Positions 8,101 through 49,200 of a stretch of DNA of 64,000 nt are shown one piece after another. A model generated the notes under the pieces. It had not been told where the DNA came from and did no database searches. It worked only from the letters and a program-made list of their open reading frames with translations. Made by a program: the position numbers and the translations under genes. Numbering within the stretch: position 1 is the stretch's first letter; every line of letters begins with the position of its first letter. Source of the stretch: Lophium mytilinum (lineage: Eukaryota); the NCBI GenBank assembly GCA_010093605.1, contig MU004192.1:876882-940881 (forward strand), read 5' to 3'.

Positions 8101-9574
8101 GCAGCCGGGGATCTCGATCGAGCTCGAGCAGCTTCATCTTGCCATCCTATTGGTGTAGGTGGTATTGGAGTGAGGCTTGTTCCGGTCTGCGCAGGTCGTC
8201 TCGTCGGAGGGCCAGGCACTGGACCATCTCCTCTTGTGAAGGAGTTCGGCGTACGGCTCATACTTTGAGACCTTGAATTACTTGGTGGAGGGCCAGGTGG
8301 CGGCGGTGGTAGCGGCATTCCCGGCTCCCAATTTTGGCCAAGCAACGGAGAATGGTCGATGGGAGTCCTGCCGCTCGAACCTGCTAGGCCTATAGCACCT
8401 GTCGAGGCTGCCCGGCGAGCAGTCGGTGCTCTCACTGGAGAGTCTGGACTCCATCGGCGTTCCGGTGTAGGTATTGAGATATGACTATCAGATGTCAATA
8501 AAATCCAGGAAACCCTTGAGAGCACACTCACGGCTGTGACGGTCTTGTCCCATGACCGGTATTGAGCGAATTACGGGATAGTACATCGCTCGTACTAATA
8601 CGCAAAGACTCAATAGCACTAGGTGGTGTGGCATTGTCCGAGGCGCGGCCCCTGGTTAGACTGGAAAGATTGAAGAGCGAGTGCTGCTTTTCCGGTCTTG
8701 GCCGTGTCTCTGAGTTATCTCTACGACTCTTGGGGGGAGGTGGAGGAAATGAAGGCGTGCCGGGAGGGTTCAAAGCACTGGAAGGTACCGAGGATGCCGT
8801 TGACATCCTGTTATCGAATCCGGGTGGTGACCTATAGTAATCCGATCCAGACGATGTCCGATGCTGCAGTAGATATTCGCCATGGCCAGAGCTGGGAGAC
8901 GGGTTGTGTGGGGGAGCAAAAGCACCGCTGGACATATGGGGGGAGGCACCTATGGGAGCTTGTCCAGGAGTATACGGCGGAGGAGGAGACGGCAAGTTTG
9001 CTAAACAAGATTTAGCCCCGTTACTCGAAATAAGTAGTATGAGAGAATGCAGAAAGCGGAGGTCTACTGTGGTCTACAATGGAACGTTATACGGAATAAG
9101 TCTTCAAGCTAGGAGTTCGTGATAGATGAGAAAGCAATTACCCTCCAGTCCGGTCAATTCCCTCTGCCTAGGCGGTACGGTAGCTGATTGCGGGCTTGAA
9201 TGCGGAACGTAGGTCCCTCCTGTAGGACCGTTCCGTCCCCATTGCTGTGGATTGTACGGAGCTGCCATGGACGCTGCGCTCCGCAGAGCCATCGGCGAAG
9301 TACCTCTCGATTCTGCGGGCGCGGAAAAGTTGGAGGGAGCGTATGGCGAGAAGGGCGTGCTTAAGGAGGTCGCAGAGGCTGGCGTCTGCGTATGCAGGAA
9401 CCCTCCTTGCTGGAAGCCTCCTTGCTGCGGGGCCAAGGCGGTGGTGATTGTGGGTGGTTGAAGGGCAAGGCGCCTCTGGGGAGACGGCGCTCCTCCTTCG
9501 CGAGGAGCAGATGTTGGCGGCGGTGGAGGGGGCGGCGGCGGGAGAGAGGCCTGAAAGCCATACTCAGCACTCAT
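5175..9574 (-). CDS. Large uncharacterised fungal protein (about 1400 aa): Pro/Ser-rich disordered N-half, predicted helical/coiled-coil C-terminal region
   Basis: Three ORFs join through introns 9141-9001 and 8531-8485 with consistent phase (..EG/EANLPSPPPPY..; ..SQP|HISIP..). The C-terminal ~450 aa is ordered, helical-looking sequence. Confidence 0.8.
7993..8028. repeat. Hexanucleotide microsatellite (GATCCY)x6 encoding a Gly-Ser linker
   Basis: gatcct gatcct gatccc gatccc gatccc gatcct, translated GSGSGSGSGSGS on the minus-strand gene. Confidence 0.9.
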
Positions 9575-30450: not shown

Positions 30451-31563
30451 TAACCACTTCTTTGTCGACCGTGCCGCTTCCTCCTCTCGCCGGACGCATA
30501 GAACCACACTACCTCGTCATCACATCCACCTTAATTCCGATTCTCGTTGCACTGTTACCAATGTCCTTTATCATATACCTTCTCATACATCCTATCCTTT
30601 CAGCATTATTCCCAGCATCCAGTTCAACTCCATCCCAGCGCTTGGCGTCCCGGCGTTTCTCATCACCCTTACTTTCTCTTTCGTTCCGCTGCCCTATCCT
30701 CGTTGACTACCTCGCATCTGTTCCGTGTCGAAAATCAAGAAGGAAAATCTGGAAACCTGGCATACTTTGATTCTCTAACATCTCTCCATTTCCACTTTTT
30801 CCCATACACTAATGCGCGCGCTCCGGGCCCACGTGAAGCAGGGGGTTGCGGGAGGCTTCTTCAGACCGGATACCTCGGGCTTGCATGCGCTTCTGGGTCT
30901 GGTCTGAAATTTTGTGGGGCTTTATATATCTCGTTTGTGGGGTGTTGAATATGGTTACAGGGGTCGAGCGAATTGCACGCGCAGGCGACAACGCGGGAGT
31001 TGGCGGTGTTGCGCATACGGGCTTTTTTGTATCTAGTCTGGACTTCCGAGATAGAAGGGAGAAGACGAAGCAGGCTCTTGATGTTTAATTTGTTGACTCG
31101 ACTCCTGTATGTGAGACTCCTTGTGTCTTGTGGCTAGCCCAGCATCTGAAGTTTACGTTTTTTCCGGTTGGAAGACGTAAACGACACGCCGCAATCAGTG
31201 TCGAACTGAACTACGCATCGTGATTTCTCTGCAAGAGCTAGCGCCATGGGATATAGCAGCTACTCTAGCATACTCCATATTAAGAAAGAGAGCAGTAAAT
31301 TCAATATGGCGCTACATCCGAGCCGTAACATTATTCTTTTACCATCGCCTAGGCTATGGATAGAGCTTCAGGACTCTGTTCTGCTACTACCCCGCCTTCT
31401 TTTTATCCGCAGTCCATGATATGGCGTTTGCTCTTCCTTCAGTCTTAATCTCTAGCTACCCAGACCCTTATTGACAACCCTAAGGGCTGCGCTCGAGGGG
31501 CTAGCACGTGACAAGATACCTGTTTGGGCAGGTCTTGGCAGTGCGCAGAAAGTATGGCAGGCC

Positions 31564-31652
31564 GAGAAGGTTGCGCCCAAATTGTAGCCAGTTTAACCGG
31601 AACCTAAAATCCCCCCCCTTTAAAATAGCTACAATCTGGGCGCAACCCTCTC
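31564..31652. repeat. Inverted repeat: 25-bp arms (23/25 match) with a 39-bp spacer
   Basis: GAGAAGGTTGCGCCCAAATTGTAGC (31564-31588) versus the reverse complement of 31628-31652, GAGAGGGTTGCGCCCAGATTGTAGC. Confidence 0.85.
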
Positions 31653-32155
31653 TGCAAGTGCCTTCTGTTACATGTATAGGGCTATGATTCAGCCTTGCAG
31701 ATGGGGCAACAGACCATACCATCTCGTGCAGTCAGCTCGTCCAGCTGCATGCTTCTTATAAGATGTTAAATTTCCGCGAAAACATCCTCTTGCGGACTTA
31801 TCTTTTCACTTCCAATGCAAATTGGGTCAACCAATGTCCCTTCTCTCTCTTTTGCGAGCCTTCTGGATTTCGTCATGGATCCCAAACTCTCATTCAACCC
31901 TCAAAATGTCATCTCGAACTCGAAACGCCTCCCAATTAGCTCAATAGAGTTTCTCCGGGGATAAGATAATTAATTCTCGCGTTCTTTCCTTGACACGTCT
32001 CTCAGAATAGACGTGTGTGCACCTTTTTTTTACTGCCTGCGGTGATTCGAACTATTCTTAAGAATTCGAATACATTCTTATCAGAGAGCTTGCTGTTACA
32101 AAGCGTAACCAATGGTATCAAACCCCCCAACCTCTCCCCTCCCGCGCTCTCCACC

Positions 32156-33774
32156 TCACGCCTTCTCCAACTCCTCAAACCTTACCCTCAACCCCATCGG
32201 CGCCAACAGGCCACCAGGGGTAAACTTCACCGTCACCCCATCTTCCAAACTCAACCTACTCCTTCTTACGCACTCCACCACCGCAACTCTAAGCTCCACC
32301 ATCGCAACCCCCTGTCCCAAGCACGCCCGCCGTCCCCCATGGAACGGCACATACTTCCCTCTCGCCGTCCATTTCCGCATGTTCGCGTGCATCTCCTCAG
32401 TGCTTCCTCCCCATCGCTCCGGCTTGAACTCCTCCGCATCCGCGCCCCACGCCGCCGTGTCCCTGTGCGCGCCTGTAGCCGTCCAGCCTACGTACGCGTC
32501 TTTCGGGATCTGGATATTGGACGGGCCGAGAGTGGCTGCGGCGGTGGTACACCGGTTTAGCAGCTGCGGGATGGGTGGGTAGAGACGGAGTGTTTCGAGG
32601 AGGAAGGAGGTGAGTAGTGGGCTCGCTTTCATGTTCGCGATATCCGTGGTAGCGTCGGGCGATGGAGAAGAGAATTCGGCGCGGAGGGCGGATTGGAGGT
32701 GGGGGTGGGCGGCGAGGAGGTAGAGGCAGGTGTTGAGGCCTTGTTGGACGTTTTCGTGGCCCGCTATGAAAGTGATCTTCAGATTGTCGCCTGTGTTGCG
32801 TGTTAGATCGGTGTGAAGGGGAAGGGAGGTGGGAAAGGGGCGCACGGAATTGCTGCTCTGTCCATGTTCCGTCTGCTTTAGCTCGCTTCATGAGGGAGAT
32901 GAGTCGGTCGTCGTCTTCTGGGAAGTCTTTGGTTTGCTCGAGGACGGTGGTGACGAGCTCGTTTTCGAATTCGTGCACGAGGGCTCTGGCTTTTGTTCGG
33001 GATTCGATGGGGAATTTGTCGAGGAAGGGCGCGACGAGGAAGAGAGGCTTGAAGATCTGGACTTTGAGCTGGGAGTGGATGGCGTGGATGCGGGGGGTGT
33101 CTGAGTCGAGTGTCTGGTGGTGAATTAGCACCACGGTTGGGCCCTACATTGAACGCAATTGCCATCATTGATGTGGTTAGGTATATACCCACTTTGAAAT
33201 CCGTTCCCAGCACTGTCTCTCCAAGAGTCTGCATCGCAAACCTCTGAATAAATGGGTTCACCATCACACCCTTTCCCTGTGGCAGCTTTCTCTGCGCCTC
33301 CAACATCAACCCCACGAACTTCCCTGCATTTTTCTGGATCCCCTGAAAGTCGAAATCTTGCCGTTGCAACCCCGGCTGCATGACCGTACGATAGCTCTTC
33401 CACGTCTCCCCATGTGCTGAGATAACGTTATCCCCTGTGAACGCCGCAAGTACGCTATATGGTATCTTCTTCTGGTTCCCACTCTTCGCATAGACGTCCT
33501 CATGCTTCAGTACTTCAAAGAGAAGCTCAGGGCGTTGAACGAGGATGTTCCAGCGGCCGCCGAAGAAGTAGTTGACAGCGCCGTGGGCAGTGATGGAGGG
33601 CTTGATATACTGGGCGTATATTTCAAGTTGGTCAAGGTTGGTAAGAAAGCCGAGGAGGGACACCCAGATGGGAATGGTGGGGATGTTGCGAGGGAAGTTT
33701 GAGGGGGGAGAGAGGGCACGGTGGAGCAGGAGAGCCAGAGTGACGAGGACGCCGGCTATGACTAGGAGAGCCAT
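32156..33774 (-). CDS. DIT2: Cytochrome P450, CYP56/Dit2-like (N-formyltyrosine oxidase family)
   Basis: Exons 33774-33193, 33113-32846, 32790-32156. N-terminal anchor, KSGNQKKIPYSVLA..TGDNVISAHGETW, I-helix AGHEN (Dit2-like), ETLR, PERW and heme motif FHGGRRACLG. Confidence 0.88.
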
Positions 33775-34083
33775 GTTCTAGTGAAGAGGATGACAAAATC
33801 TGATTATGAAAGAATCGACGAGAACAGAAGGGAACAAATATCAAGGGCCGAAGAGCGAGCATATGGGACTAGACACTATGAAAAAATGATAGGGACGCTT
33901 TGATATATTAACAAGGACTTACGCGCGGGAAGCATCATCGGAGACCCCACCAGCCCCATGCAGCATATCCCCTGCAAGAAACATGATTACGGTGTCAGTC
34001 ATGCACAGCACGACTTCCTTCAGCCCCCAGGGTTTTGCATCCCCAGCTAGCCATGGTAAATCGGAGCGTCCAGCTCCCACGTC

Positions 34084-34292
34084 GCCAAGTAGTAAGCGGT
34101 GAGCTCGGGCGTTTGCGCTTAGACGCCCAGCTGAGTAGGGCGGTGCCTGCATGCCAAGAGCGTCCGCGGCCTCGACGTTTCGAAGATAAGCTGGGGCTGA
34201 AAAGCTACCTCTGATGCTAGTCTGCGATGCTTTTTGCATTGAGAGCGGTCTCGCCGTGGACATTATCGAGGCAAGAGGCGAAGTGCTTGGCA
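34084..34292. promoter_or_regulatory. PacC/Rim101-type sites upstream of the P450
   Basis: GCCAAG 34084-34089, TGCCAAG 34152-34158 and CTTGGCA 34286-34292. TATA-like element near 33903. Confidence 0.55.
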
Positions 34293-34499
34293 GGCTTTGT
34301 GAACACTCTTCTAGATGTCTTACATAATTTCTGAATAAGTGAGATTGAAATTGAGTGAATGATGATACATTACTGTGCTTTGTTGGTAATCGCGGTATTA
34401 TGAGAGTATACATATAAATGATGTCTACAACGAATCCCAGAACGCCGACTATGCAGATCGCTAAGTTCAAAGCTCTTATATAGACGCCACTGCTTGCCC

Positions 34500-36352
34500 T
34501 CATCTCTGAATCGTCGACGGCGCCAGACTGACCGCTGACACTCCAGCAGCTCCCTGACCTACACTCGGCGCCGCTTTTGCTTTTTCTGCGGCTATCTCGT
34601 CGTCTATCCTCTTCCTCCAGCCTGGCCCGTACCAAATGAGGACGATCACCATCAGAATACAGCTCATATCTAGAGCTGCCAGGCCGCGAAAGGTCCATCC
34701 AATCCCGATCTTTGTCACTATAGGGTCGATTACCAGCGAAGCCAACGACGCGGCTGGATTGCGGAAGAGACTAGCAATGGCCACAAGAGTGGCGGCTTGC
34801 CCTGGCTTAGCTAATGTCATGTACGTTGTGTTTGTCGCAAAGACCCAGCTCATGCTAAAGCCGACCACGGCTGTCGCCGTGAGCACAACGGCAGGGTGGA
34901 ACGCAAAGTAGCAGGACCATCCGTAGAGCTCGATGCCGATCGGGAAGAGCACCACGCCAAAGAGTTGTGATTTGATGCGGTGCTCTGGAGCAACTTTACC
35001 ATCGGGGCTCGCGCGTTGGGCGCGGGTGTGGTCCCAGTCTGAATAGCGGCCGCTGAGAAGTGACCCAGCAATCATCGAGACGCCAATAGGGATGTATGCG
35101 ACGCCAATCGCGGTTTCCGAGAAGTGATATTCGTACTTTAAACGGGTGGGGAGAGTGACAGCGACGCAGTAATAAGAGCCGAAGAGGATTGCTACGTTGA
35201 TGGAGACGAGTACGATTGGTGGGTATTTGAGCAGCTTGAAAACATTCATCGCGCTTGGACGCTTCATAATTATGGTTCCTGGTGCGATAGGAGCGCGAGC
35301 ATGGAAGTTGGGAAATGCGATCCAGGGTCCGTCGGCGTGGAGGGCTGAGTTCCCTACTTTTGCACGGAGTGTTTCGGGGAGGCAGAAAAGCATCCAAACC
35401 CAGATTGCGGCACCTAGGATGGCGAGAAAGCCAAATATCCATCTCCAAGAGGTACTACCTATGATAGCGCCCCCAATGACTGGTCCGAGCACAGGTCCGA
35501 GCTGGGGACCAAGCATGAAGCTAAGTAAATTAGTCATATGCACACGTGGCCCTGTCGCGGTGAATGGTACTAACATTGAGATAGCTCCTGCTCGGATCTT
35601 CGGCTCATACATGTCCGCGATGGTGCCTGCCCCTAGACTGGCGACGCTTGATGCGCCAGTAGCTTGCAAGATACGCAAGAAGAAGAGGGCGCCATAGTTG
35701 GCAGGAATAAAGATAAGTATGGCATTAGCGAGTACGAATATTAGAAACGATATGGTGTATAGCGGCTTCCGGCCCATGAAGTCTGCACAGGCTCCCCAAA
35801 AAAGAGGCTAAGAGAAATCAGCTGTCTGAGTAATAGGGATAAAGACCAAAATAGGCTATTCCATACTGCGATAGCAAAGACTAGCATGAAAATGGACACT
35901 GTGGCGTTGATGGCTACTCGACTGACGTGGAAATCTATGGAGAGCTGAGGCAGAGCTGGGAGGTAGATGTTCCCGGCGACAGGAGCTAGAAAAGCAGCGG
36001 CTGTGACAATCGCAAGGAGAAATTTGCGGCGGCCATCGGAGAATGCTGTATATGGTGGCTTCTGGGGCTTCGACAACGGAGCTTCAGTCTCGCTTCGAGG
36101 GAGCAGGAGAGAGGTGTCTGAGAAGTCGCGAGCTGGCGCGGGATCGTTGGTTTCAGTCTGCGAAAGTAGAGAGACGGAAGAAGAGTTGCGGCGATGTCCA
36201 ATAGCATGTTCAGGCTCAGCTGCAGGGACGGAAGAGTAGCTGGAGGAATTGCCACGATAGCCCAAGGAAGGAGTTTCATGACCAATAGTGATGGTCGGAA
36301 CTTTCTGCAGAGGATAGATTGGCTGCAGCGGAACCGAGGAGGGAGCTGCCAT
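34500..36352 (-). CDS. MFS DHA1 drug:H+ antiporter, Dtr1/QDR-like
   Basis: PPYTAFS..IYLPALP, motif A-like D(F)MGRKP, GAGTIADMY, motif C LGPQLGPVLGPVIGG, WRWIF, LPET and PEHRI. Two introns near 35807-35865 and 35521-35570. Orthology to yeast DTR1 is inferred from context only. Confidence 0.9.
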
Positions 36353-36898
36353 GGTGGAGTGACAAAATTCGGAGTAGAGAGAAGAGAGACGGAAGAGGGG
36401 AAGGGCGATAAGGCGAATAGACAGCGTATAGCTTTCACGCGGAAGTCAGACTGCCCTATAGCGGCATCATTGCCTCGACCCGCAGCATCGCTCAGCCCTC
36501 AGCCCTGTGCGGGGGGGTAGGTCCTACAGCGCACGGTAACATCGACTGGGCGTCTTGGACTCATCTCAGGCGGGCTTGGGACTCGACTTTTGCGGTGAGC
36601 ATGGTGAGACGGCGGCTAGCTAGCAGACGGCGAGGAAAGGGCAAGCACAGCCGTATCAAGGGCCGTGGAATGCATGTCGGTCTGGAAACTAACATTAGAG
36701 TATGCATGCATGGCTCAGGAGAACTCGGAGCGTGGGTTGCATAGCGAAGCTAAAAAGGAGCAGATCTCAGCCCCGATACCAAGCTTCAAGCCTGCCTGCT
36801 GTCTGAGCAAACGCCGAATGTTGTTGGTGGCATAGTTGTGTCGGGGAGACGCGAGAGGGAGCGGGCGGCATGAGCTGAAGTTGCCCAGCTATTCACTG

Positions 36899-37318
36899 CT
36901 TGGCAGCCCCAGCCACCTTGAGCTTAGCTCCATTCTAGCACCAATCGCACGGTGCCGTTGGATACATTGCGCCAGCCACTGGTCTGAGCGCATGCAACCC
37001 TCGCCAGTCACTAGGGACCTGTGTGGGCTAGCTGCCAAGTAGGGCTGTAATCCTACGATTTGCTAAGACGAGCATCGGCTACGGATCATGCAATTGGCGT
37101 AGCCGCCCTAAAACGCAACTCCACCCGTTGTAGGGCTGAGACTCCACACCGCAACCCAACCCACCTCGCGTCCCAATGCATCAAAGAACACCCGCGGCGG
37201 TGCACGCTACGGGCACTACCATAGTAAACATGGGCTTGCGGGGACCAACACGTACCGCCGACATGTCGCCGATGACAGGCTCGGCCTGCTGAACAAACGG
37301 CGAGCTGGGCACTTGGCA
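36899..37318. promoter_or_regulatory. Three TGCCAAG (PacC/Rim101-type) sites in the divergent MFS/Dit1 promoter
   Basis: CTTGGCA 36899-36905, TGCCAAG 37033-37039, CTTGGCA 37312-37318. TATA-like TATATAG near 37482. Confidence 0.55.
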
Positions 37319-37606
37319 TTACGGCTGCAGCAAGGTGTGCGACTGGAACAGCTGGCAGGCCCTGATAGACCGCTGTGCCGGCGGGCGGTCCAGGATGCTG
37401 CGAATGCTTGTCACTGCTCTAAATCCGACCTGGGGGTGAGGCTGAAGCCATGGGGTGCTAGAATGCACCTTCGGGCATAGGTATATAGTTTCCTGAAGCA
37501 GACCAAGACTATCCTTTATCAAACTCACCATCTATCATCTTCTCTTCGCTTTTACTACTCATCAATCGCTTGATTTCTGTTCAATTCCTCCTATACTACC
37601 GCAATA

Positions 37607-39513
37607 ATGGTCGAAGTCAAGCGTGGTGATTCCCCTTATCATCAGATCCGTGCCCAATACACTCGCGACGCTGAAGGCAAATTGCTCGCCGTCTTTGGCC
37701 CAGAAGCTCTTTTAGTCGAAAAGGACTGGGAAACGTACTGGGGGAGATTTGTCCAGCCCAATGCCACTGCCAGCAAACGAGCCATCACTACAATCAGCTC
37801 CTCTCTCACAGCCTTCGAGGTCGACAATCCTACAGGCGTCATCGCCGAACCCCTAGACTCCAGTTCTGTCACACCGTCACAAACAATTGAAATATGGGAA
37901 ACCCAGCTCGAGGACGAGACACAGATTCGTGGCCTCCTGAAGCTCCCCAACTCATACTTCAAGAAGCCAGTCACCGACGCTGTTGCTGAGTGGGCTGTTT
38001 CGCTGGTCTTGAAGACGGCGAGACTTGCACATTGCCAACCTCTACCGGAAGAAGATGAGAAAGCGATGAACCTAGCCAACACCATCACCGATATCTTCTC
38101 AGACACACTACGAAACATTGCCGATGGGGATCAGTGGGACTTCGGAGGCCGCGATTACTTCAGGGACAGGATACTTCTCTTCACATCTCGAAAGCAGAGG
38201 ATCGATATGATTCTTCCTGCGTTCCCGTGCAAGTCTTCTTCTCTGAACAAGGTGGCAGGAACTCGCCCGGATAAAGGCGAGGAGCTGGGCCTAAGAGGCC
38301 TGTATCTTTTCGTGAAGGATATCGAGAAGATTTACCCTCCGGGCGCATGCTGCTTTATCGCATCTGATGGTCACGTCTTCAGTGACAACAGTAAGCACAT
38401 TCAAACGTTTCCGGTAGCAAGATGCTAACCTCACCAGTCGGTGTCGATGACGAAGTAGTAGACACCTACAGCTCCCAGCTCATCGAAATGAAGGACGCCA
38501 TGTTAGGCCCCGAATCGAACCGCATTGGCTTCTTCGGCCTACCCGCCCTCTTCGCTCTCGGCGAACTCAACGCTCCTACATCTGCGGTTGCTAAACTCGA
38601 CCTCCCCAATTATGTCAATACCAAACACACCGAGGACGCCAACCTGTGCCGTAAGCTCATGGTACATGCTTTCGGCATCGACGGCTCAGCGCTCCGCAAC
38701 AAAATTGAAAGCGGCGATAAGGCAGCACTAGCCCTCTACCGCGGGTTCACACGCTTCATGCTTGAGGACCTCTCCCACAACGGCTTCATGATGTCGAAAT
38801 CCAAGTCCCAGCAGAAGAAACTCGCTGCCAAAATTGCTTTTGAGATGCTCAAGCGCAACCAAGCTTACTCCAATCTTTGCGAGCTCCTCTTCCCCGCCTC
38901 CGTCCGCCTCTCCATCCACGCCCACGTCAATTCCGGTCCCAAGTTTGGCTGTAACCTTCTTTCACGTTTTAACTGCCGCACCACCGCCTCCCTGCTTGAC
39001 TACTCCCCTGAGAAAACAGACGACCTCCTGCATGTGCCCACCCCCTGGCACAACACGATGGTCAAGATGGCGCCCCAAGATGGCTTCCTCCTTATCAAAG
39101 CCTGCCTTGTGCATGAAGCCATTGGCGAGGGCAAATACACCTCCGCCTGGGTCGAGTCCAACCTAACTACCGGTGAGGGCGGGTACTTCCTCCTGACATC
39201 TACCACGCCCAAGGCCCGCAAGATCAGTCTCGCACAGAAGGTCAACTCGCGCATTATCCCTTCGTTACGTCTGGCAACCAACTTCTCTCTGTCTGCAGAA
39301 CGCAGGAAGGCACTCATCGACGACGAGACATTCTCGCCTGGCGGTGCTGCGGCGCAGGCAATGCTGTTCTCGGCAAATGAGCAGAAGCTGGTGCTTGAGC
39401 GAAGGGAGAGCATGGGGATCAAGAGTGCGGGCATCAAAAGCCCGACCAGCCATAGTCCGTTTGGAAGTGGAGTAGGGAGTTTGGCGAGGAGGTTTACGAC
39501 GATGAGGGTCTAG
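37607..39513 (+). CDS. DIT1: Dit1/PvcA-family isocyanide synthase (pyoverdine/dityrosine biosynthesis protein)
   Basis: Exons 37607-38390 and 38438-39513 (intron GTAAGC..CTAAC..CAG). Motifs LPAFPCKS, KVAG..PDKGEELGL, SDGHVFSD.IGV.D, LYRGF.RFM.EDL, RNQAYS, RLSIHAH..SGPKFG and HVPTPWHN. Confidence 0.93.
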
Positions 39514-40920
39514 GCGAGAGGTGGAAACTGTGTAACGGTAATTGGTTTCAAATTGTTTTCGTTTGGTCAAGTTGTCTACTTTCTTTTGCCACTTCGTCTA
39601 CGGATGATTGAGTGTTTCTGGTGTTCTGATACTGGTAATTTCATAGCATGGGCGTCTTATGGGCCTTTCACTTAGTAGTGTGGGGAGAAAATTGAATCGA
39701 GTCACTTCATTGCATTCACATTCACGCTGAAGACCCTCCGCATCCTACGTTTTAAGTCCTCTGCGCCCCATATCCAAGGCCGTATGGGTCCAACAAGTTC
39801 TCTCTCCAATAAAAAACCTGTAACTGTTAGATCCGCTTCTTCTTCTCACGAATGAGACTCAAAACGACCCCCTTTGCGTGCACGTAAAGGGTCCTCCGCG
39901 GCGCACCCGGTGGACCCTCCGCCTCCGCCACATCCGCTTCAAAAAGTCCCAGAAGTAACCGCCGCGGTTAGATCCGAGAACTTTTCTCCCAAAAGTACCA
40001 AAAGTCTAGGCATTGAGGTCTTGTCCACCACACATCGTGTCTACTCAAGAGGATGTCATCACCACAAGTCACGTGCATCTCACATGTCATGTAAATATCT
40101 CTCGGTATAAAGGAACGTCAACCACAGGGCCTGGATATTTTCTTCATGGAGGCGGCAGTGGTTTTATGGGGGGTAGTACCTCGAGAGTATGAACAATTCG
40201 ACGAGCGTGGGTTGCTGTCAAATAGATCCAGGATGTCCCCATGGTGCTGCTGGAGGTCTGGTAGTGGAGTCAAAATGACAGACGCAACTTCCCATGTGTC
40301 GTCGACTGATCAAATTCCGAGATAATCTACCTCGTGGAGGGACGGGAGACTGGCAGAGGTTGCAAAATCGCTGATGTCTAGACATCCAATGGGCTGGGTC
40401 GATACGAATATTTGAATGAAGACGATATGCATCATCCTTCGCTCTTTCCGCTCTTCATCAATTCCGCGAAGCGCTGATCTGCATGCAGTATTTCAAGTGT
40501 GTGGTTGGTTAGCTTCTTGGGATAGAGGTAGTCCCAATCACCGCGACTAATGAATGCCTCTAAACCCCAAGTGAGTGCTTTCAAAGTCACCTCCCACTTC
40601 ACAAGTATCTTTTGCTCGGAAGAGTGAACACCTAGAAGTAAGTATACTCACGTGGCTCGTATTAAGTCTATTCCACTGTAGAGGCCGCTGGGAATACTTC
40701 TTAGGTGTACCATCTATCAAATAGGAGGCATAATCTACTGACTTCAACGTTTTGGAGGACTATAAAACGTGTAGATGGATAGAAAGTGTATTAAATCATT
40801 GTTCCACCAGATTTCCCGAGGTGTACGCAGCGTCAATATATCTTCCTGATGACTGTATTCTCATATAAGATTGAGATTCGTCAACTCTGAGAACCTAACC
40901 CCGACCACAAGCAAGGCCGC

Positions 40921-43060
40921 TCAAACCTCAAAGTCCCGTTTCTTATTTACCGGCTCCGCCGCACCATGAACATAGACATCCAACTCAGCCTCCGCGCTCT
41001 CAAACTTCGTTTCTTTACTCGCCTGTCCCTCAACCGGCCAGATGCTACATACACCCCAGTACGCGATCGCGCTCACGATAATCCCGACCGGTAGCGCGAA
41101 GACGTACAGCCGTTGGGCTCCGAGTGGAATGCCGCTAACCCCGACCGAATGTAAGAAGCCTGGAAAGACCGGGACAATACCCGTGAAGTACGCAGTGTAC
41201 GCGCGGAAATTCATGCCGTGCCAGTACCAGTACGGTCCCTGTCGCGAAGTAGAGAAGAGCGCGTTGACATCGTAGTTCCCTTTCCGGACGAGGAAGTAGT
41301 CGGAGATTATAACGCCGATAACGCCCGAGAGGAAGATCTGGTAGCTGCCAAGGTAACTAGTGAAGGTGAAGGAGGTCTTGGTCAATTCCCAGGGGTTGAT
41401 GGCGAAAGCGATAATCATGCAGATTACGGCGCTGCGGCGGTATTTGATGAATCTGGTTATACATGTGTCAGAATGGTGGGGCGAGACGGTACTGCTTGAG
41501 AGAATGGAAGAAGGCTTACCGCGGCCACATCGCTGCGGTGTCATTCCCGGCTGCTATGAGATTGGCAAATATCATGGTCGTGACTTGGGCGAACGTGAAT
41601 CCGAGAGCAATGAAGAATACACCAGTGCGGGTCTTGGAGTCGTACTCCATTGTGAGGAAGCCGTCGAGGATGGCATTAGGGTCCCAGAGGATCTAGGCGC
41701 GCATGAGGGGATTGCTTCTTAAAGATAGACGTAGGAGGCCATACCTTTCCAAAAATGACCTTGCTCGAAGATGTCACAAACACACCAAAGAATGAGATAA
41801 GACCATAGCCCAGAGGCAGGCCGAAGAATTGAGTCCAAAGTGCATCATTCGGATGACGCGCATAGCGACTTATATCGGCGTTGTTCGTTGCGAAAGTTGC
41901 CATGTTCGCCGCCTGGATGAAGAAGTTGGTAAGAAACACCTGTTGATATGTTTAGTATCTGGTCTAATATCGCTATGCGAAGGAAAGTTGGGCGTGTACC
42001 CAAGCATGAGATGAGCCCTTTGGAATTGCAGAGCTTTCATGAATGATCGGGCCGATGCCATCTGCTTTTGAGAGAGACCTGTAATGAATCAGATACTGAG
42101 AAGGAGGGCCTTTCTAAGAAATTCGCGAACGCACCACCCGAAGAAGGTTATCAAGCACACAAACATGATGCCCGCTTTGAAAATGATAAGGCGGCCAAGA
42201 TTCCGTGGCCGAATAAATGCGTAGGCTGTGACAATGATCCACGCAACGCCAAAAGCGATCAACATCCCAGATGTCATTGCAACATCCGCAGGGAAGACGT
42301 TGTGGACGTGAGCAATGGAAGGAAATATGGCATGCAGCATTACATAGATGCAATTACCCCTATAATCGCCCGTTTTAGCATTTCGAGTCATCGGCATAGC
42401 ATGCGCTTCCAAGACTCACGTTGTAACCATTTGTACTCCTGACCAGATGATAGTCATAGCGTTCCTGTTGAACAGCGGCCAGTAACTGCCCCAAACACCA
42501 AAGCTAGCTCGGACAATGACCGGGAAAGGGACGTGGTACTTTGCTCCAGGTCGACCCGTCATGAGAAGCGGAACTACCACAATCCAGTGACCGAGGATAA
42601 CGCAGAGCCACGCTTCCCACTAAGACTAATATCCACGGTCAGTTTCGCGAAGCTGGTATGGAAATTAGAGATACTTACTAGTCCATTCTTCACTCCTGTG
42701 GAAGCCACAGTCCAGGAGGTGACACTAGCAGACTCTGCTACCCAAAAAAGTGCGTCTACAAAGTGTTCAAAAGTGTACATAACAGCAAGCTGGGAGGATA
42801 AATATGAGAAAGCTGGACGCTGTCGTCGCTCATAGGTGTCTAACTTACAAGACCATCTTCCCCATTTCCTGTCTTCGAGGGGTACGGGAAGCAAGTCTGT
42901 AGCTACATGGGTCGTTAGTGGAAATGCTACAACCACTCACAACGAGCGAGTCCCAAATCCGCCGGTAAACCTCCGTCCGATCAAGAAGATGTTTCCTCTC
43001 TCTGCTTAGGATGAAGACTTGGTTCTATCACGGCTTTAGGAAGTCCAACGGGAAGACCAT
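40921..43060 (-). pseudogene. NCS1 (Fur4/Dal4-type uracil/allantoin) permease, possibly pseudogenised
   Basis: Reconstructed about 8 exons: DLLPVPLEDRKW, YALFWVAES, GAKYHVPFPVIVRASFGVWG, NNADISRYA, NPW, DYFLVRKG, YWYWHGMNFRAY. There is an in-frame TAG at 42620-42622 if the first acceptor is used, and no clean in-frame start (TGA at 42981-42983). Confidence 0.6.
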
Positions 43061-44374
43061 AGCGATTGGCTGCTTCTAGATCCAACAAGACCGTAGCGTC
43101 GAAGGGAGTGCGTTCCCGACCTGTCTGGGTTCTGCGGTGGAGACCGTGATCCACGGCAATACGTATTCCAATGCCGCATAGTGTCCAATAATTGGGAAGA
43201 TCACTTCGAGAAATTATGGATATGCGCTGCCGGATAGCAAGGATGTAGATGTGAAGATTGTGGCGGCTAGTAAGGGGGAGGACTACGCGAATGTGAGGCT
43301 TGGTGCTAAGAGTGGCGCGGTTTCGAAAACTGCGGAGGTGGGAGCGTAGGCTGAAATGAGGGTTGAAAAGTGAGGGCTGAAATCATTATAAATCGGGAAA
43401 GGGGGGTTCGGAATTCAATGTCAAAATGAAAGGAAACAAACCACTATGTCAAAAGACTCTACCTCAGGTTGGACGAGCAAGCATTAAACATCTAGCAATC
43501 GAGTGGTAGGTGGATTCTTACTAATTTTATTGGGTGAGATATCAGACAGCTCCTTCGTTCTATTCACTCGCGTTTACTTCTATTGTTCTTTACTAGCTCA
43601 TCCAACCGTCTACTCGATCTCGACCGAAGTCGATTACGGTACTGAGTGTTACGTGAGAGTGCGGAGACTTGATGGTCCCCGTCACGGTCTAATCGAGTCG
43701 ATTAAAAGGTCTAGCGTTACTGAGTAAGCGAGCCTATCTGCCACCCCCAATTTTCCAGTCGAGGTCGGTCGACCAGCTGAGCGGGTTACAGAGCAGGAGA
43801 TATTTATCTTAATCCGTGAGTATTCTAAGCTTTACTATCTCCTCATTCAAATAACTAACTACCTAAACTTCGCTTGCTTTATGAGCCTTGATCTTGGGTC
43901 TCCTAGTGCATAGCTACGGAGGGCCAGTCACTGCAGCCCGGCGGTTTGCTTCGTTAGCATGCGGACCCTCTCTTCTGCTCGATCTATAGTAGCTAGTCCC
44001 TAAAATCCACTTCCAAGCACGTGGCTGCAACATCACCAACATCATTGGTGCGAAACGCGCTCAGACAGAAAACTCGCTCATTCGGCCGCAAAAGCTTCTC
44101 ATGGCTCAGTGTATATCATCTCCTGACTTCCGCGCTAGTCTGGTGAATCAGAAAACTTCCTCAATTCCCAAAGTCCCCTCTTTGGTTCTCTGGAGACTTC
44201 AAAACAATCATTCACGGCAGCATATCGCACACAACATGAGTTTCGTCCAAGTAAAGATGAATCATTATTAAAGACCTCAACATTAACAGTCCTACATCAC
44301 CAGCAACCCAGCCCAGATCCCCGTTTTTCGATTTACACAGCGCACGTAACCTCTATTACATTTTTGCCCTACAC

Positions 44375-46479
44375 TCACAACCCAGAATCAGTCTTCTGAT
44401 ACACCGGATTCTGATAGTACGTCTTCCAGTCCGTACACTGCGTATCCCAGTCGGAGCCGGGGAGGGTGATCTGGCTCTTAGCCTCTAGGAACTGCACACC
44501 GAGGCCCTCGCTGATGTGCCACGCGATATGGCAATGCATGAGCCAGGCACCGGGGTTGTCCGTTTGGAAAGCGATGGCCAGCCAGCCGGCGCCGGGCAGC
44601 AGGGCGACGTCGCGGCGGGTAGGGTTGTTCCAGGTTAGGGTCGAGGGGGAAGAGTTGATATCGAAGGTACCGGAGCCCGTGCCGAGGACGTAGAAGTCGT
44701 GGCCGTGCAGATGTATGGCTGGATTTTAGTTAGCAGCATTCAAAGAAGTGGCAGGATAGTAAAAGGAGGGAAGATTGATAGAGAGACAGAAAGAGGAGGC
44801 TTACGATGCGGAATAGGCACCTTGGTTCCCGGTGTCTCCTGGATAATCCAGTACGTCCAGATCCCCTCTGTGGGCAGCTCGATGAGGTTTAATACCGATG
44901 GATATGACGTGTTTCCAGTCTTCACGTACTCGAGCGTCGGATTGCGCCAATCAACGTCGATAGCGGAAACATTGACGCCCCAGACGACGATGTTTTGGCC
45001 GTTCGTCGTGACCTGCTCGACAGCCAGATCGACGTTGAGATTACCGACTTGATTGATGAAGTCCGAGCTGGAGACCGTGTTTGTGACCCAGGGTACGAGA
45101 GTCTTATCCTCGACGCAGCCCCCGCTGGGAGCTGTGAAAGCAGAGGTCGTTGGGTCGCCAGAGGCAGCACCGGCATAGCTGAAAACACTGCGGCCGTAGA
45201 AGTTGTTGGAGCTGGCGCAGTCGGTAGCAACTTCTGCGCGGAACCAGTAGTTGGAGACGGTCTGGTTGGCGTAAATGATCACGTCGTACCGTTGACCGAT
45301 GGCCAAGAGAACCCAGTTTGTGTAGTACGGTTTGATAGGAACCAAGTCAGCCGTAATGACCTGCAGTTGGTGGTTATCCAGCGAAACGCGGATGTTGTTG
45401 TCAACAGACGTGTTGATCAGACGTAAGCGATACTTTTTCCCCTTCGTGAGTTGGACTTGGTCATATGCTCCTGCGCCACCCGGGCTCTTATTCTTGCCAT
45501 TGATGAGAAGGGTATCCGCAGGTGGCGGGGGCTGTCCCTGCTGAAGGTTGCTGAAATGTATATTAGTATCGGCTTGAGACTACCAGGACGTATAGAAACT
45601 CTTACTTGGAAGCGATAACGTTAAGCTGATCTGCAGTACTATAATACCAGTCGTTGACTGGATAAGGACCTAGGTCAACGTCATAGTTTGCAGATGCAGG
45701 ACCGTTGATTTTGATCGCGCCAATGAGGCCGTCGCCGTATTGAGAAGAGTAATGGGAGTGATACCAGGTCGTGCCGAATTGGGTAGCTTTCCACGTGTAT
45801 ACTTTGGTGTCGCCAGGTGCGATAGGACCTAATTCTCGTAAGCCAAAACTACTCAGTACAATCGCTAGGCAAAGTATTACACTCGGTGATTCCGTTGACA
45901 CCATCCATAGCATTAGTGTTGAGCTGTCGGATACCGTGCCAGTGGATGACTGTGCCGTTCCCGGTCAACTTATTTACTACCGTGACCTGCACAGTGTCTC
46001 CCCAGTCTAGTTGAATCAGTAAATGACGTTGGGCGTATCTCGTAGGAGGTCCACTCACTGGCTTCAATCGTAGGACCTGGGTACTGGCCGTTATAAAGAA
46101 AGCATATCCGATCACCGTTCCCATCCGGATTACACGTCGTGTTCGTGACAGTCAGAGTGTATTGAACCGTGTTGCCGGTGGTTGGCCATTTTTTATCAAA
46201 ATCTGTCAAGACGGAATAGCCACTTGACCAGCAATTGCGTGAAGTTGGTCCATTGGTACACGCCGCATCGGCGACCTTGGAAGTCGAGCTGGGAGCGACC
46301 GAGCTAGTCTTGGAAGTCGAGCTGGGAGCAACCGAGCTAGTTGCACGGCGCACATTGTGAAGCGTTGCCCCAGCAGAGCCGCCTGGTCCCCATAGAACGT
46401 GATCTTGGGGGATTTGTGTAGCTGTTGTCGTGGAAGCTAATGCCAGAAGGCAGGCGGCGGCCAACTGCGTCACGCGCAT
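44375..46479 (-). CDS. Secreted laccase / multicopper oxidase (AA1, asco-laccase type)
   Basis: Signal peptide MRVTQLAAACLLALAS, a RR processing site, Cu motifs HWHG, WYHSH, PH|PIHLHGHDF and HCHIAWHISEGL, and the C-terminal DSGL*. Four introns. Confidence 0.95.
46276..46341. repeat. 33-bp tandem duplication in the laccase N-terminal linker
   Basis: CTTGGAAGTCGAGCTGGGAGC(G/A)ACCGAGCTAGT x2, encoding TSSVAPSSTSK twice. Confidence 0.9.
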
Positions 46480-49200
46480 ATTGCCTGAAGGATGATTGAA
46501 AAGTACACGCAATCAATGATCTAGAGGCAGAAAGACGGAAGAATTAGAAACGAAGGAGACTCCTAAAGTATGGAAATCGTTTGAATTGGGAATGCAGGTA
46601 CTTGACCGAGAGAAGGGAGCTAATATATATGCTATAAGAATGCAGGGTCCGAAATTTTCAGCGTAAGTAGACGCGCACTGCTTCCAATACCGATTTTAGA
46701 GCCACCAGCTAGACTCTTCTGGCCATCGAGGTGCTGCCCTGTCACCTCACCTGGAGACATGGATCGGGTACGGAGTAAATTACGCGATCCATAATGTTGG
46801 GGCCGGAAGGACTGGCTGCATGAACGTCAGGGGGGAGTAACTGGAATAGATCAAGGGGAAATTTGACAAAGCTTGTTGCACGACGTGAGGGCCAACCGAG
46901 AGAGAAAATTCGCCACCAGCGAATGAGAAGAGATTTCATGAGAGAATGGCCACTTCGTCGCGGATTCGCAATGTGACCGGGTCTCCAAGGCGGACTGGGC
47001 TGACCGGCTGCCTGCCAAATTGTCACAGCTGGAATGGAACATTGCATGAAAGCGAAGATAAAGCGGAGACTAGTAAAACAAGGAGATAGGTCCCTGATTG
47101 AGGCTGACAGAACGGAAAAAATATGCAAGGCTTAGGGCATTGCCTGTTTTGGCGGGCTACCAGCCGGTGCTCCAACCAAGGAAACGCGATCCCGAGCTAG
47201 TGGAAGCGATCCACAAGAGGCCGCCGCAGGTAACAATGATGCGGATCCTTCTACGTATTGGCTGATACGAGAACTTGATCCGCGGAGGGATTACTTCTCC
47301 GCTGGCATCCATCGTCTACTCCCTGATTCGTCACCACTCCTCCATAGTTGCATGCAGGCACATTATGCATTGAGCAAGGTACAAGAAATAGATCTCAGAC
47401 TCTGTCTCGTTATTTCGGTCTCGATTCGGTCCGCTGATGGATACGATCGAAATCGTTACACGGCATCACCCCCGCTTTACCAACCTGAAGGCGCAGCGTC
47501 CTTTGAAACTGGCTGGCGGATCGCCCGCGGGAGAGGAGTGGTGCCGCCACAGCAGCACAGGCACGTTGTCTCCCGACGGTAACGTGAACAAGGCGAAGCG
47601 AGGAGTCTAGAATTGACGCCACCATTTCGGGACTGAAGTGCTTCCGACGTGGATTGAATCCCGAGAGAGAGCTCCGTTCTGCATGATTGATGGCTGCAAG
47701 GAGGCTGAATAGACGAGCATACAGCGCCAAAGGGGCCGCTGGCGCTAGGATGCGTACGTGATCAGTAACTTGTAACCCACAAGCGAGTGCCTGCATACAT
47801 GTGCGGTGCACGGGGCTGGGATCTTCACGCTGGTACCTGGTCCCTGGACACTTCGCGCCCGAGCATCTGGCATGCTGGGCCAGCGGGTTGGAGACTCATC
47901 CCTCAACACCAGAAAATAGGCCCCGCGATGCCCATACGCTGACAAGACTTAGCTCCGAGGGGCCTCTCGTGCAACCCACCACACATGACAGCTGACTCTG
48001 CCTCGCCCAGCGTTTTACGTGCTGCGCTCTACCTCAAAGTCAGCGCCTTTTGGTTCAGCGAAGGTTCATATTAACTCGACGACGACGGGTCGACGGCAGA
48101 ACGGTGTGGTATGTGGTACACGAGGCGCCAAAGCCTTATGAGGGCACCGGCGGAGTTGCGCGGAGTCGATGGCATGATGCGAGACGTGCAGCGGGGTTGC
48201 AGAGAGCGGGAATGAGCGGCGTGGATTTGCCCGGCGTAGGTTTACCATGCACTCGGCATCTGGTCCATGCATCGCATTCTGTTCATCACGATGCTGTGAT
48301 GGGTTGTTGTGGTGGGTGGGTTCCTATGCATTTGCAGGACGTGGGTGAGGTAAAAATAAGCGCTACGCCAATCGTGCCCATCTCCCGCGATCTTCCCGCC
48401 CGCAAGAAGACCCTTTCTCCTTCGCCACTCACGTTGCCCGCACCACGGCATGCTCTCACCGACTGCCGCTAGCTAGCCGGCCCTTGTTTGCTTCTGGCAC
48501 TCCCGGGCATGTGGAGTCGCTAGGTACCGCTTCCCAGCACGGCCTGTGGCTTGAGCAGGGGATGCAGCAGAGCGCCACCAGCCATGGCTCCCCACCTCCC
48601 CTCCGATCGTTGTTTGGAGGACGCTCTTGTCAGCTCGAGCTCTCGCAACCGATCCACACCGATCCACATCTCTACCAATCGGTGAATAGAGCCTCCCGCA
48701 GCCGAGCCCGATTACTCGACTGTCGGCCTCTTAGCTCTGAGCCGAGCGTTCCGTCCCGAGTCTCCTCCAGATGCAGCTTTGCGGCGCCCGTCTGACTCCT
48801 GCGTCCGCAAGACGGCCTGCAGGAAGCAATGACAGCTGGCAGAATCTCCAGCTTTGGAAGCCTACACATCTGACCTTGTCACTGGCACCTGTCACGGCTC
48901 CGGAAGAATGAAGCAAAGTGTCTCCCTCAAGATAAGCTTCTGCCAACATACGCCAGGCGCCACTGTGCAGATGCGGCCCTGGGCTACGTTTCGGAAAGAT
49001 TCAACAGCTTCAAAACGGCTCCCGAAATAGATTTTCGCACTACGGAGCCTGTCCGGGGAAAAGGGGCGATTGGAGACATAGCTCTGCACCAACATCGAAG
49101 CCTGGATGGCGCAACATGCTGGACCCAGCGCTCTCGTCATCGCCACGACTGTCGCAGGGTACGAGGTGTCCTGCAGTAGCCCCAATGCGGCATCACGATA

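Follow-up and report, generated by a model that had tools for sequence, protein, structure and literature searches.

The stretch of DNA considered here, a 64,000-nucleotide window from contig MU004192.1 of the Lophium mytilinum genome (GCA_010093605.1), carries an expressed DIT2–DTR1–DIT1 cluster of a Mytilinidiales Dothideomycete, and the two regions upstream of its genes are rich in GCCAAG, the core of the site for the pH regulator PacC. A PF05141 synthase is linked to a CYP56/Dit2 cytochrome P450, as in known dit isocyanide synthase clusters, and an exporter of the DTR1 type is linked to both. The first exon of DIT2 (residues 1–195) shares 99% identity with a protein that bears the name Lophium mytilinum Dit2, and DIT2 has many further Dit2/CYP56 matches; Aspergillus nidulans also has a P450 of this family, CYP56B1. 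For the transporter, identity is 89% with a protein that bears the name Mytilinidion resinicola dityrosine transporter A. Spliced RNA contigs span all three genes (31657–33865, 34325–36838 and 37182–39725, with five introns); the run that supplied them, X3, was taken as RNA by guess and from the five spliced joints, its growth condition is not given, and its contigs cannot give transcription starts, strand or level. A second run, X1, possibly supplied the DNA itself and offers no independent variation. That the three genes form a unit follows from homology and linkage. The initial annotation had also counted the shared promoter motif as independent support for this unit, a point that carries little weight because PacC acts globally and an equal density of sites is seen at unrelated genes, so that sites alone do not define a cluster. 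There is no transcription factor gene among the three members, and control would therefore fall to global regulators acting through repeated sites.

The two upstream regions (1,979 base pairs (bp) in total) contain six GCCAAG, five of them within TGCCAAG, and every one of the five TGCCAAG/CTTGGCA sites and the additional GCCAAG reported in the initial annotation was found in the window sequence (Table 1). Its uniform-base estimate was about 0.25 expected TGCCAAG. When the genome is used as background, with 5,971 TGCCAAG and 25,215 GCCAAG in 43.41 Mb, 0.27 and 1.15 copies, respectively, are expected in 1,979 bp, giving Poisson probabilities of 9.9e-6 for five TGCCAAG and 0.0012 for six GCCAAG, where the background is the genome total and not a per-promoter distribution across the genome. 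Five TGCCAAG were reached in none of 2,000 trinucleotide-preserving shuffles of the upstream regions (mean 0.45) and in none of 5,000 dinucleotide shuffles (of 2,035 bp). The window as a whole has no such excess, with eight TGCCAAG against 10.5 expected from shuffling, five of the eight lying in the two upstream regions; its remaining 18 stretches outside open reading frames (ORFs; 16,182 bp) hold one TGCCAAG and seven GCCAAG. Four of the five TGCCAAG, together with the extra GCCAAG, sit in the 802 bp that RNA contigs leave uncovered (P 5.6e-6), although contig ends are not transcription starts and the position of sites relative to contigs is a hint only.

Table 1. Cluster genes, upstream regions and candidate regulatory words in the window
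Feature	Position	Strand	Details
DIT2 (CYP56-type cytochrome P450)	32156..33774	-	3 exons; introns about 33114-33192 and about 32791-32845; Pfam p450
DIT2 upstream region	33775..34499	.	uncovered by RNA contigs: 33866-34324, 459 bp
GGGCTGA	34020..34026	-	DIT2 upstream region
GCCAAG (PacC core)	34084..34089	+	DIT2 upstream region, in uncovered gap
TGCCAAG	34152..34158	+	DIT2 upstream region, in uncovered gap
GGGCTGA	34194..34200	+	DIT2 upstream region
TGCCAAG	34286..34292	-	DIT2 upstream region, in uncovered gap
DTR1-type MFS transporter	34500..36352	-	introns 35808-35866 and 35521-35574; Pfam MFS_1
Divergent DTR1/DIT1 upstream region	36353..37606	.	uncovered by RNA contigs: 36839-37181, 343 bp
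Two tandem GGGCTGA (36492, 36499)	36492..36505	-	within DTR1 RNA contig
GGGCTGA	36767..36773	-	within DTR1 RNA contig
TGCCAAG	36899..36905	-	DTR1/DIT1 upstream region, in uncovered gap
TGCCAAG	37033..37039	+	DTR1/DIT1 upstream region, in uncovered gap
GGGCTGA	37133..37139	+	DTR1/DIT1 upstream region
TGCCAAG	37312..37318	-	within DIT1 RNA contig (reaches 37182)
DIT1-type isocyanide synthase (PF05141)	37607..39513	+	2 exons, intron 38391-38437; Pfam DIT1_PvcA on both

The same genome provides controls for these numbers. It encodes pacC, with one zinc-finger match (G000:C1:1733567) that was located through a zinc-finger motif and then confirmed by named homologues, its main exon being 64–68% identical to proteins named PacC/RIM101. 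The pacC promoter has eight GCCAAG within 2 kb, and one of two ATPase genes, which from their translations we take to be of the ENA type, has six within 1 kb, so that the three GCCAAG per kb of the cluster fall within the range of the pacC and ENA promoters of this genome. A second isocyanide synthase gene (PF05141; L059, G000:C20:69080–69990), whose product is 28–45% identical to the Dit1 proteins of the loci compared below, serves as a negative control and has no GCCAAG in the 2 kb upstream.

Orthologous loci were collected by alignment to DIT2 exon 1, which gave 41 loci, and DIT1 was placed in them by Pfam (19 of 36 ORFs scanned) and tblastn; as the loci were sought through DIT2 and not through the DIT1 of the window, any cluster whose DIT2 exon 1 has diverged strongly will have been missed. 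Near-duplicates at 95% identity (L007, L008, L010, L013, L014, L021, L024, L026, L028 and L038) were left out, apart from L010 and L014 in one count of promoter regions, as were loci lacking upstream DNA (L001, L031, L035 and L041). Fourteen mould loci were counted, which by best protein match are mostly Sordariomycete-like with two Dothideomycete-like; Mytilinidiales are not represented among them, and conservation was judged at the level of the hexamer in these other moulds. Two regions, in L015 and L022, were assumed to be DIT1 promoters although the available DNA shows no DIT1.

Across these 14 loci (19,978 bp upstream) there are 46 GCCAAG against 16.4 expected, which ranks the word first of 2,080 hexamers and was reached in none of 300 shuffles, and 15 TGCCAAG against 4.6–4.8 expected. 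The ten loci in which DIT1 was seen give 33 GCCAAG against 12.8 (again rank 1 of 2,080), and 18 of their 19 regions contain the word; a stretch fixed at 500 bp 5′ of DIT2 in ten loci gives 15 against 4.4 (rank 1; 8 of 10 regions). The excess is present in all three mould gene arrangements. In the first, that of the large Sordariomycete-like group, DTR1 and DIT2 diverge and DIT1 follows downstream; in the second, found in L030 and L039 and also in Candida-type yeasts, DIT1 and DIT2 diverge and DTR1 follows downstream; in the third, that of the window, DTR1 and DIT1 diverge. When the large-group promoters are aligned (n=7, three of them near-duplicates), a CTTGGC block aligns in six, and the seventh has GCCAAG close by on the opposite strand. 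A small sample of four DIT2 loci whose available flanks show no DIT1 has one GCCAAG in 3,200 bp. The base 5′ of GCCAAG in the moulds is T at 15, C at 15, G at 8 and A at 8 of the 46 sites, so the 5′ T is not fixed, and what is kept across moulds is the PacC hexamer and not the yeast 7-mer. The words ACCGCC, CAAACA and AATAGA are also enriched across dit promoters. At one of the loci collected (L010:8768–9034) only the C-terminal part of DTR1 is matched, near-identical loci having the whole gene, which reflects either a deletion or a misassembly.

Several observations weigh against reading these sites as a PacC signature. In the window, the TGCCAAG at 37312 lies inside the spliced DIT1 RNA contig and may belong to the 5′ leader, and GCCAGG, the other variant of the PacC consensus, is absent from both upstream regions (1.2–1.8 expected). 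Corrected for composition, GCCAGG ranks 295th of 2,080 and is not enriched. Some 7-mer or other attains five copies in 68 of 300 shuffles, so the weight of the TGCCAAG excess rests on the prior reason for choosing this word and on the cross-species test, and in the ranking of 7-mers in the upstream regions TGCCAAG comes second, behind GGGCTGA (first of 8,192). The second ENA-type gene has just one GCCAAG in 1.5 kb, meaning that the positive control holds in two of three promoters. Among the other fungi, the promoter limits were hand-drawn once the site positions had been printed, and the 41 neighbouring ORFs (32,800 bp upstream) carry 33 GCCAAG, 1.64-fold over expectation and rank 45 of 2,080; since the neighbours are themselves somewhat GCCAAG-rich, dit promoters exceed them about two-fold (P 0.0002–0.002). 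The loci are not independent, since at 80% identity eight of the 14 fall into a single group. Taking one locus per group, GCCAAG ranks first or seventh depending on the locus chosen, and outside the large group there are 13 against 4.8 expected (rank 9; P 0.04 when compared with neighbours). The site is missing from L040 and occurs once each in L032 and L037. Other blocks in the DIT2 promoters (around GGTGTCCAA and CAGGATT; L010, L011, L014, L015, L016, L019 and L020) are conserved like the PacC block, from which it follows that further factors act too.

The closest published parallel is Gaeumannomyces tritici, in which homologues of DIT1, DIT2 and DTR1 (GGTG_03473, GGTG_03474 and GGTG_03478) are expressed more strongly at neutral than at acidic pH, rising together with pacC, and in which GCCARG was found upstream of all three, leading its authors to propose PacC control in 2020 (PMC7392285). 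The two cases are alike in being mould DIT1/DIT2/DTR1 homologues with GCCARG upstream and proposed PacC control. The relevant section of that paper notes the presence of the consensus with neither a background count nor a mutant, but with expression data, whereas the window belongs to a Dothideomycete rather than a Sordariomycete and offers six GCCAAG with controls. The supplements of that paper have no entries for dityrosine, DIT1, DIT2 or PF05141, although its gene identifiers were not searched there. At neutral-to-alkaline pH PacC undergoes cleavage, and it switches on alkaline genes by way of GCCAAG arrays (PMC7459330, PMC12521412), as illustrated by Aspergillus nidulans enaA and enaB, which have five and six GCCAAG upstream and for which PacC is an essential activator (PMC7459330). 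The array here is comparable; enaA and enaB are, however, single transporter genes tested in mutants, while the Lophium genes form a biosynthetic cluster whose sites have been read from its DNA. The dit cluster is reported from about 30% of ascomycetes, with its product and role known in yeasts only, and Table S4 of Nickles et al. includes a cluster from Lophium mytilinum that has P450, MFS and DIT1_PvcA in the same order and with the same neighbouring domains (PMC10153163). The window shares with that superfamily the pairing of DIT1 and DIT2 in a filamentous ascomycete, but the cluster predicted there comprises about 24 proteins and is much wider than three genes.

In the Saccharomyces cerevisiae locus (L027), a single TGCCAAG (position 9558) stands in the divergent DIT1–DIT2 promoter, with ACCCT, which we take to be the Nrg1 word, five bases away; none of the TGCCAAG or GCCAAG sites in the window has an ACCCT-type word at this spacing, so the yeast negative element as such was not found. 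Going by the title of Rothfels 2005, Rim101 is said to be a corepressor with Nrg1 at DIT1. The likeness to yeast lies in the enzyme families, the TGCCAAG in the divergent promoter and the orthology of Rim101 with PacC. The two differ in the number of sites (one there, five or six here), in the sign of regulation (repression there, probable activation here) and in layout, DIT1 and DIT2 sharing the yeast promoter with no DTR1 found in the 20-kb locus, whereas in the window DTR1 lies between DIT2 and DIT1 and shares a divergent promoter with DIT1. Cleaved Rim101, the PacC orthologue, regulates DIT1 and DIT2 in S. cerevisiae (PMC4161353). Six yeast-type loci together have four GCCAAG against 1.1 expected (reached in 11 of 300 shuffles), and only L027 has TGCCAAG in its counted promoter regions. 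The suggestion in the initial annotation that the regulatory link is conserved from budding yeast to this mould is thus partly supported, by the TGCCAAG of the S. cerevisiae promoter, and is weakened by the single site, the repressing role of Rim101, the five of six yeast-type loci that lack the word in the promoter regions counted and the variable 5′ base in moulds.

We consider it likely that the sites in the window are functional PacC sites, which PacC would bind at neutral-to-alkaline pH, activating all three genes together; the cluster is probably switched on under these conditions. From established knowledge of the pathway, Pal signalling would cleave PacC at neutral-to-alkaline pH, and the short form would then bind the three sites upstream of DIT2 along with two or three in the promoter that DTR1 and DIT1 share, raising DIT2, DTR1 and DIT1 together. 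Carrying over the enzymology from yeast, Dit1 would convert tyrosine to an isocyanide/formyl-tyrosine precursor, Dit2 would couple this product to a dityrosine and Dtr1 would export the dityrosine. The co-regulation by ambient pH proposed in the initial annotation is in this sense well supported, and we infer it from the sites and their density, the in-genome controls including pacC itself, the top rank of the hexamer in other moulds and the pH response in G. tritici. Given that Rim101 represses DIT1 through one site, and that expression of the G. tritici orthologues is higher at neutral pH, the sign of regulation probably differs between yeast, with repression, and moulds, with activation.

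PacC might instead bind these sites and repress the cluster, as Rim101 with Nrg1 does at the negative element of yeast DIT1, so that vegetative cells would not express it before a developmental signal arrives. TGCCAAG is the word bound by the repressor Rim101 in S. cerevisiae, and PacC itself represses acid-expressed genes (PMC5349140), while five of the six window sites are exact copies of the yeast 7-mer and the corepressor role in the Rothfels title points the same way. We nevertheless judge this unlikely, given that spliced contigs exist for all three genes in the sole RNA-like run (of unstated growth condition), that the G. tritici orthologues rise with pacC, and that the ACCCT companion of the single yeast site is missing at that spacing here. 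It is less likely still that the TGCCAAG excess is a by-product of chance or local composition and that the sites have no function. The 68 shuffles in which some 7-mer attains five copies would favour that view, as would the 0.22 such 2-kb bins expected genome-wide under Poisson and a dispersed fold-back repeat carrying TGCCAAG that could seed sites, but the word was predicted beforehand from yeast, the excess recurs in other species and none of the 14 matches to the repeat falls in the cluster promoters.

Another factor could also lead, with the PacC sites secondary or acting jointly in response to alkaline pH and calcium, and the most likely such factor would be Crz1/CrzA acting through GGGCTGA. 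This word has six copies against 0.25 expected from its 5,544 genome copies, is the top-ranked 7-mer noted above, and differs by one base from GAGGCTG, a word of Crz1-dependent yeast genes (PMC2873923); calcineurin/Crz1 runs parallel to Rim101 at alkaline pH (PMC3385132). It is weakly enriched in the other moulds, with eight copies against 3.5–4.0 expected (4–10 of 300 shuffles). On the other side, it does not fit the Crz1 in-vitro consensus GNGGC(G/T)CA (PMC5349140), so the label goes by resemblance; the hexamer GGCTGA ranks 581st of 2,080 across the other moulds, three of the six copies lie within the DTR1 RNA contig and the word was picked out after the fact. The pacC and ENA promoters counted contain no GGGCTGA. 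A leading role for Crz1 seems to us improbable, to about the same degree as repression by PacC, and a putative Crz1 input through GGGCTGA is a lead, no more.

Activation by PacC thus being preferred, what the window adds is a PacC-site signature on a known type of cluster by a known regulator, which is real and well supported but largely anticipated in print: as the idea has already been published for G. tritici, the gain is statistical and comparative support and not a new concept. The new elements are counts corrected for background, controls from within the genome, the rank of GCCAAG across species, a sign of regulation that is likely to differ from that in yeast, and GGGCTGA as a second enriched word. 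Nickles et al. detected shared promoter motifs with CASSIS that are unnamed in the relevant passages (PMC10153163), and neither the text nor the part of the supplement searched mentions PacC, Rim101 or GCCAAG. The literature search returned no paper that counts PacC sites across species in dit promoters, most subscription papers being outside its reach, and no pacC-mutant test on a mould dit cluster, although supplements of PacC RNA-sequencing and chromatin immunoprecipitation-sequencing studies, outside the search, may hold such data.

A wider reading, which we offer tentatively and with less than even confidence, is that PacC/Rim101 input to dit is an ancestral ascomycete link kept from yeast to Dothideomycetes and Sordariomycetes with its sign changed. 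A single Rim101/Nrg1 site would hold the yeast sporulation module off, whereas PacC arrays (here with Crz1-type sites) would activate these genes in growing hyphae. In moulds the cluster would then be an alkaline-stress module whose product is a wall-hardening or metal-binding tyrosine isocyanide and not a layer of the spore wall, and the input would have been lost from DIT2 genes no longer in the cluster. If this were true, a simple condition would induce a cluster reported from about 30% of ascomycetes and so yield its product, and dit would offer a test case for one regulator–target link kept over a whole phylum, its sign possibly changed. If PacC drives the mould cluster, alkaline medium or a constitutive pacC allele would be a direct route to its activation and to isolation of the product.

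Two further TGCCAAG in the window were considered as cluster control sites and rejected, the one at 31534 being 3′ of DIT2 within a dispersed repeat and the one at 41346 lying within a permease coding exon. A longer shared motif around TGCCAAG was likewise discarded, as the flanks differ and the families that the repeat search listed have no long element in common. The repeat 3′ of DIT2 (31497–31655) is the fold-back element mentioned above, with 36-nucleotide inverted arms; its 14 genome matches, the copy in the window included, are 77–100% identical, and the inverted arms of the other copies are 41–81 nucleotides. In form it resembles a small non-autonomous transposon, and it may spread PacC-type sites.

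Beyond the annotated starts, the RNA contigs reach 425 bases further 5′ of DIT1 (37182–37606), with seven upstream ATGs that open short frames, and 486 bases further 5′ of DTR1 (36353–36838), with 12 such ATGs; these long extensions reflect either minor upstream starts or control by upstream ORFs. On the far side of DIT1, at about 40900–46500, lie a permease of the purine/allantoin type and a multicopper oxidase, and this laccase-type enzyme adjoining a tyrosine-coupling cluster may be a chance neighbour.

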